Source of the DNA: Escherichia coli
GTDB lineage: Bacteria; Pseudomonadota; Gammaproteobacteria; Enterobacterales; Enterobacteriaceae
Reading direction: 5' to 3' (one strand)
NCBI RefSeq assembly: GCF_003334385.1
Contig: NZ_QOWN01000225.1
Length of the DNA stretch: 235 nucleotides
A program made the translations under genes and the position numbers. The notes under the pieces are model-generated. The model worked only from the letters and a program-made list of their open reading frames with translations. It was not told where the DNA came from and ran no database searches. How positions within the stretch are numbered: position 1 is the first letter of the stretch; each line of letters begins with the position of its first letter. Of the stretch, positions 43 to 194 are shown in pieces.

Positions 43-59
43 AAATTCCCGCGCCATCC

Positions 60-93
60 GTAGGCCGGATAAGGCGTTTACGCCGCATCCGGC
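60..93 (-). repeat. REP palindromic unit, Y-like (GCCGGATGCG type), complete, inverted relative to the preceding unit
   Basis: Direct: GTAG head at 60-63; stem arm 64-76 GCCGGATAAGGCG pairs with arm 81-93 CGCCGCATCCGGC (reverse complement GCCGGATGCGGCG) around loop 77-80 TTTA, with the same GC/AA central mismatch. Read on the minus strand it is GCCGGATGCGGCGTAAACGCCTTATCCGGCCTAC. Confidence 0.88.
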
Positions 94-107
94 AGTCGTG
101 CGCAGAT

Positions 108-143
108 GCCTGATGCGACGCTAACGCGTCTTATCAGGCCTAC
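108..143 (+). repeat. REP palindromic unit, Z-like, second copy
   Basis: Direct: identical to 7-42 at all 36 positions, offset by 101 bp. Confidence 0.88.
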
Positions 144-160
144 AAATTCTCGCGCCACCC

Positions 161-194
161 GTAGGCCGGATAAGGCGTTCACGCCGCATCCGGC
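161..194 (-). repeat. REP palindromic unit, Y-like, second copy
   Basis: Direct: identical to 60-93 except one loop substitution (180 c versus 79 t; loop TTCA versus TTTA). Both stem arms are unchanged. Confidence 0.88.

Follow-up and report, generated by a model that had tools for sequence, protein, structure and literature searches.

The 235-nt stretch of Escherichia coli DNA analysed here (the window) belongs to a repeat array between mhpE and mhpT, and its sequence recurs at 100% identity in E. coli K-12 (J53) and many other strains. In K-12 the array is extragenic, inside a 577-bp gap from the mhpE stop codon to the mhpT start codon, and the + strand of the window is antisense to both genes. 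Tandem Repeats Finder reported a single array of 2.3 head-to-tail copies with a period of 101 (97% matches, score 449), and a repeat search gave 97% identity between positions 1-101 and 102-202 and 100% identity among 1-33, 102-134 and 203-235. The complete K-12 array holds 4.4 units (L001 2961-3404), with five y and four z2 hairpins. We consider it very probable that the window represents 2.3 units of a bacterial interspersed mosaic element type 2 (BIME-2) array whose units owe their likeness to in-register duplication and deletion. Within the window, y REPs on the + strand and z2 REPs on the - strand alternate in inverted orientation, joined by 17-nt head-to-head and 14-nt tail-to-tail linkers. 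The element is a textbook BIME-2 at a documented locus and is already known: the mhpE-mhpT array has been drawn and discussed as a REP cluster that is a hotspot for lac-amplification junctions (Lin et al., PMC3161906). A literature search found no study dedicated to the function of this array.

Related copies are present in 5426 of 5426 complete genomes, at a median of at least 38 places each, and at least 259 matching places in these genomes lie on plasmids. The 213,924-bp record NZ_CP014273.1 of K-12 C3026 carries the whole array together with mhpE and mhpT, and is presumably an F' plasmid with the lac-mhp region. A blastn-short scan of 150 kb of K-12 returned 56 candidate REPs, of which a few are spurious (about 50 REPs). 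The same K-12 genome has an annotated rayT (L022 22637-23134), ~127 kb away and flanked on both sides by y/z2 BIMEs (22458-22541 and 23147-23334 of L022), an arrangement referred to as a "REPtron". The z2 units beside rayT share a C-to-A change (GGCATG), which breaks a stem pair in several copies.

The window begins inside a 14-nt tail-to-tail linker, whose 3' end (1-6) is identical to 102-107 and 203-208. It is followed by the first z2-type REP, an inverted repeat on the - strand (7-42) with stems 7-14/31-38 and 16-20/25-29, a loop at 21-24 and CTAC, which reads GTAG on the - strand, at 39-42. The 17-nt head-to-head linker AAATTCCCGCGCCATCC (43-59), with variable sites 49 and 57, separates this CTAC from the GTAG (60-63) that opens the first y-type REP, an inverted repeat on the + strand (60-93). 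The y copy has stems 64-70/87-93 and 73-76/81-84, an AA/GC bubble at 71-72/85-86 (A71 A72 / G85 C86) and a 4-nt loop at 77-80 that includes variable site 79. In the alignment with Rfam naRNA4, the complete 14-nt linker AGTCGTGCGCAGAT (94-107) falls opposite the model's own linker. The second unit repeats this order, with a z2 copy (108-143, - strand) identical to the first, a 17-nt linker (144-160) carrying t150 and c158, a y copy (161-194, + strand) with c180 in its loop, and a 14-nt linker (195-208). A third z2 copy (209-235, - strand) is cut by the window end and continues in K-12 at L001 3209-3244. Folded alone as DNA, the z2 hairpin reaches -11.6 kcal/mol on the + strand and -12.9 kcal/mol on the - strand (z about -5.3 to -5.4), and the y hairpin -12.2 kcal/mol (z about -4.5).

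These features place the array among the BIME-2 elements in the nomenclature of Gilson, Bachellier and Hofnung, as restated by Ton-Hoang et al. 2012 (PMC3333891). Both 60-93 and 161-194 have a 5' GTAG and an imperfect palindrome with an AA/GC mismatch, as y-type REPs do, and the z2-type REPs at 7-42, 108-143 and 209-235 lie inverted next to y with CTAC on the + strand. Compared with the published z2 query GCCTGATGCGACGCTGGCGCGTCTTATCAGGCCTACG (PMC11208160), and apart from the last base, the z2 copy differs in the loop alone, TAA for TGG. The array further shares with BIME-2 the short linkers, tandem multi-copy organization, extragenic position, near-identical copies, variable copy number and a host that encodes RayT; nothing essential differs, and the sequence of the 17-nt head-to-head linker is locus-specific. 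REP325/naRNA4 (RF02564; yjdM-yjdN in K-12) has the same tandem architecture of y, linker and z2. It differs in lying at another locus with mismatched linker sequences, and at mhpE-mhpT the flanking genes are encoded opposite to the strand that scores best. BIME-1 (y, a long L linker with an IHF site, and z1) likewise pairs a y REP with an inverted second REP but is single-copy and uses z1, whereas the present array is tandem, with z2 and linkers of 14 and 17 nt. The IHF consensus WATCAANNNNTTR is absent from the window even at one mismatch, and BIME-1 was ruled out on the z2 partner and the missing consensus. The Pseudomonas REPINs that Bertels and Rainey are said to have described in 2011 are reportedly inverted REP hairpin doublets associated with a RAYT, a domesticated Y1 (HUH) transposase. 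They differ from the array in having an unrelated sequence and in forming dispersed doublets, not long tandem arrays in register. Rho-independent terminators share with the array a GC-rich hairpin after a stop codon; the T-run is missing here. A CRISPR was rejected because the 101-nt units are contiguous and lack unique spacers.

Every unit carries candidate sites for mobile-element enzymes. Matches to the "iREP I" cleavage motif of RayT (TnpA-REP), TGCC|TGAT (PMC3333891), occur at 6-13, 107-114 and 208-215 on the + strand, and matches to the "iREP II" motif GGCC|TACA (PMC3333891) at 36-43 and 137-144; on motif identity these are candidate cleavage sites. The 11-mer ATCAGGCCTAC lies on the + strand at 32-42 and 133-143; Durrant et al. 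2024 (PMC11208160) report it as the sequence that the IS621 bridge-RNA recombinase naturally targets. Strain PK-F-10122 has an IS621 insertion (IS110 family) precisely at ATCAGGCCT|, within the first z2 hairpin of the array (L032 640-960). DNA gyrase preferentially cleaves BIME-2 arrays in general, more often in y than in z2 and mostly at loops and mismatches (PMC6379681). By analogy with the other BIMEs in the literature, the mhpE-mhpT array would contain a DNA gyrase site and serve as a substrate for RayT.

The two full copies in the window differ at c49/t150, t57/c158 and t79/c180 alone, as an earlier sequence-only reading of this DNA had reported with correct coordinates. All three differences fall outside both local hairpins, 49 and 57 in the 17-nt linker and 79 in the loop; stem positions are identical between the copies, and the T79 and C79 versions of y, with each unit folded alone as DNA, give identical folds. 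That reading had counted some 54 paired positions per unit; we count 48 (26 in z2 and 22 in y), or 56 if the possible CTAC/GTAG pairing is included. It had also graded the pattern as suggestive only. The probability that three of three differences are unpaired is 0.14 (hypergeometric, 53 of 101 positions unpaired), which is not beyond chance, and 0.10 with the 47 of 101 unpaired positions assumed earlier. The label "unpaired" is itself dependent on the structural model, because in the predicted minimum-energy fold of the whole 235-nt window y and z2 hairpins from different units pair with each other, and positions 49 and 79 fall in paired regions.

If selection maintained the stems of this array, substitutions should be depleted there in homologous arrays, which was the prediction drawn from the window. 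A strain set of 24 genomes was picked from the 5426 at even steps down a similarity ranking, and the intergenic regions were fetched through their unique flanks, so that hairpins played no part in the choice of sequences. Alignment to a consensus gave 58 y copies and 34 full units from the 24 strains. Counting columns across strains rather than mutational events on a tree, we found 18 substituted columns, 9 in stems (25, 37, 64, 66, 68, 70, 74, 75 and 83) against 8.6 expected and 9 outside them (22, 23, 49, 51, 57, 60, 79, 94 and 101), with P(<=9) = 0.69 (hypergeometric). The prediction of stem-depleted substitution thus fails in homologous arrays. The sequence-only reading had itself held that an even distribution between stem and non-stem positions in a larger set of units would refute it, and the 9/9 spread is such a distribution. 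In the 17-strain set, internal copies alone had 4 of 13 variable columns in stems (6.2 expected, P = 0.16). Neither the seven strains added to that set nor one IS621-interrupted array contributed a new variable column. The unique flanks were variable at 9 of 93 columns and, approximately on the right, at about 2 of 41 in the first 17 strains. With 9 of their 48 columns variable, the stems are not visibly protected relative to adjoining non-repeat DNA, though each array column was sampled in more copies.

The stem changes are for the most part uncompensated. The search for compensatory changes that had been proposed from the window gave a mostly negative answer: seven of the nine stem changes break a pair, one yields T.G and one (74/83) may be compensated. 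Among 24 distinct units from the first 17 strains, 16 of 24 pairs are invariant, six depart by broken pairs only and one gives T.G. T70C against A87 is a broken pair in 8 distinct sequences. At pair 74/83, G-C to A-T, both sides are changed in two related haplotypes, a result that hinges on the alignment of the adjacent 2-nt deletion. A 2-nt deletion in the 3' arm of y is present in 11 of 58 y copies, and the T70C and G74A variants reach 22-28% of y copies. The first (edge) y copy of K-12 itself combines T70C, G74A and C83T with the 2-nt deletion, and its predicted folding energy is -6.1 vs -12.2 kcal/mol.

Constraint on REP stems is visible over the wider family. In 150 kb of K-12, 15 distinct y sequences showed changes on both sides at 3 of 11 pairs in 7 cells, a value reached by 0 of 500 shuffles; the covarying pairs are C66-G91 to T-A (four sequences) and G74-C83 and G73-C84 to A-T. 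Among 14 distinct z2 sequences, one pair (1/12) changed on both sides, from A-T to T-A or T.G. Both paralogue sets were found by similarity and include subfamilies copied whole, so the cells cannot be counted as separate events. In the paralogue alignments variation is greatest in the loops; the GTAG, though unpaired, hardly varies, and the AA/GC bubble does not vary at all. The RayT transposase requires both the GTAG and the AA/GC mismatch (PMC3333891). Unpaired therefore does not mean unconstrained. Compensatory stem change across REPs has been described before (PMC3333891, Figure 1 legend; bioRxiv 10.64898/2026.03.23.713779), and across 697 palindromic units variation is concentrated in bubbles and loops (Harris et al. 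2026, bioRxiv 10.64898/2026.03.23.713779). REP/BIME elements have been described since the 1980s, and REP variation that avoids stems is already published; stem maintenance holds at the family level only, where it was known.

The number of units varies greatly between strains, with 0.4, 1.4, 2.4, 3.4 or 4.4 units per array. A single y hairpin stands alone in about half of the sampled ranking, and the locus is absent in roughly a tenth. This agrees with the published description of tandem BIME copies at one locus as well conserved but differing in number between strains (PMC3333891). In one array of 3.4 units (L005), unit 1 is an exact recombinant that joins the T79 y of K-12 unit 1 to the C49/T57 linker of unit 2, placing the crossover somewhere between unit positions 79 and 49. 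Taken together, the polymorphism in unit number, the strict 101-nt register and the recombinant units point to in-register unequal recombination or slippage. Such events, possibly with help from RayT, would expand and contract the array, and the turnover would redistribute among units a small number of old variants in loops and linkers (49, 57 and 79). Sites 49, 57 and 79 are among the most polymorphic of the whole sample and are old variants, common to many strains, that have been shuffled among units. We attribute the near-identity of the units to this growth and shrinkage of the array, through tandem duplication and deletion in register. Of the two readings offered earlier for the window, recent duplication is thus borne out by the copy-number polymorphism and the recombinant unit, and selection on the stems is not, the substitutions being evenly spread.

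Three other explanations were weighed against turnover of the array. Purifying selection on the stems, through RayT recognition, gyrase binding or mRNA hairpins, would leave differences in loops and linkers only. Stem variants are in fact rarer than others, with minor-allele frequencies of 0.03-0.28 vs 0.05-0.47 for non-stem variants (one-sided Mann-Whitney p = 0.02, with non-independent copies), and this, together with the 4 of 13 internal columns, is indicative of a degree of purifying selection, or of intact units being propagated preferentially. The covariation in the y and z2 families and the concentration of variation in bubbles and loops among the 697 palindromic units (Harris et al. 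2026) point the same way. Against this stand the 9 vs 9 variable columns across the 24 strains, the seven of nine stem changes that break pairs without compensation, T70C and G74A at more than a fifth of y copies and the halved folding energy of the K-12 edge y; the in-window probability of 0.14 is unremarkable, and the frequency test takes related copies as independent. We regard selection on the stems of this array as unlikely to explain the pattern. Homogenization by the enzyme itself is less likely again: RayT would cut and rejoin at the conserved C|T sites, regenerating intact units, and its choice of template would keep the stems alike. The same genome encodes rayT, TGCC|TGAT and GGCC|TACA recur in every unit, and TnpA-REP recombines BIMEs and assembles multiple REPs in vitro (PMC3333891). 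However, register-preserving unequal homologous recombination of 101-nt repeats accounts for the same data, and the L005 recombinant only places its crossover between positions 79 and 49, so that we find this explanation improbable.

The least probable of the three, in our view highly improbable, is that the units encode a naRNA4-type small RNA that works with HU in nucleoid organization, the stems being kept for RNA function. The Rfam model RF02564 (naRNA4; y hairpin, linker and z2 hairpin) does match the + strand above its gathering score of 59.5, at 63-140 (87.2 bits) and 164-235 (68.1 bits), and such RNAs have been reported from REP325, of the same architecture (Qian et al. 2015, PMC4550694). 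Yet mhpE and mhpT lie antisense to the strand that scores best, a promoter scan found no promoter-like site on either strand of the intergenic region, and the reverse strand also passes the threshold at 62 bits because the DNA is palindromic. The nucleoid role of naRNA4 (PMC4550694) is moreover contested: REP325/naRNA4 were found to act locally as terminator and stabilizer, with no measurable nucleoid compaction (Harris et al. 2026, bioRxiv 10.64898/2026.03.23.713779). The stem changes in the population are also uncompensated. Turnover of the array therefore stays our preferred account, and the three differences outside stems are very probably a small-sample coincidence on top of a weak family-wide constraint, the in-window pattern being no evidence for stem-specific selection at the mhpE-mhpT array. 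At this one locus, followed across strains, stems are substituted as often as loops and linkers, so that the near-identity of tandem units reflects array turnover and not selection on each stem, a caution against inferring selection from three substitutions.

Whatever maintains them, the hairpins could act in the mhp transcript. No terminator-like site was found within the array on either strand, and no hairpin is followed by a T-run, which rules out intrinsic (Rho-independent) terminators. REP325, with the same architecture, is a partly Rho-dependent attenuator of its downstream gene and a stabilizer of the upstream mRNA (bioRxiv 10.64898/2026.03.23.713779). By analogy, the hairpins in the mhp sense transcript probably restrict how much transcription continues from mhpE into mhpT, and shield the 3' end of mhpABCDFE. 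It is conceivable, if quite unlikely, that unit number (0.4-4.4) is a heritable dial for read-through of mhpABCDFE into mhpT and for stability of the upstream mRNA. Weak selection for intact hairpins would then show only as a low frequency of stem-breaking variants, and such a dial, if real, would extend the REP325 result of Harris et al. 2026 to natural copy-number polymorphism.

The linker 20-mer GGCAGTCGTGCGCMGATGCC, which spans the tail-to-tail linker and flanking stem bases, is present three times in the K-12 array and had no Escherichia match in a contig collection with one genome per species. Its three matches there (L019-L021), in Leucobacter and in metagenome-assembled Gemmatimonadetes and Planctomycetia, come from high-GC sequences with no REP context and were dismissed as chance. 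The representative Escherichia genome either lacks this linker variant or carries a copy that the scan missed.

Several other repeat loci were encountered in the course of the analysis. A "hypothetical protein" annotated under the match in strain ET665 (NZ_CP100933.1) is probably an ORF called inside the repeat array. At L023 9757-10121, four y and four z1 REPs fully cover the annotated CDS "yahH" (9793-10089); this ORF is made up of REPs and probably does not represent a genuine gene. The prpB/prpC intergenic region (L023 19605-19968) holds a second kind of tandem array, whose y subtype GTAGGTCGG...CCGAC has the inner stem GACGC/GCGTC; this subtype departs from the mhp y unit at two stem pairs, each changed on both sides so that pairing is kept. 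A neighbouring BIME-2 array in the fghA/yaiL intergenic region (L001 797-1005; period 100, 2.1 copies) has the same y and z2 stems as the mhp array and nearly the same 14-nt linker, and differs from it in the long linker and the z2 loop.
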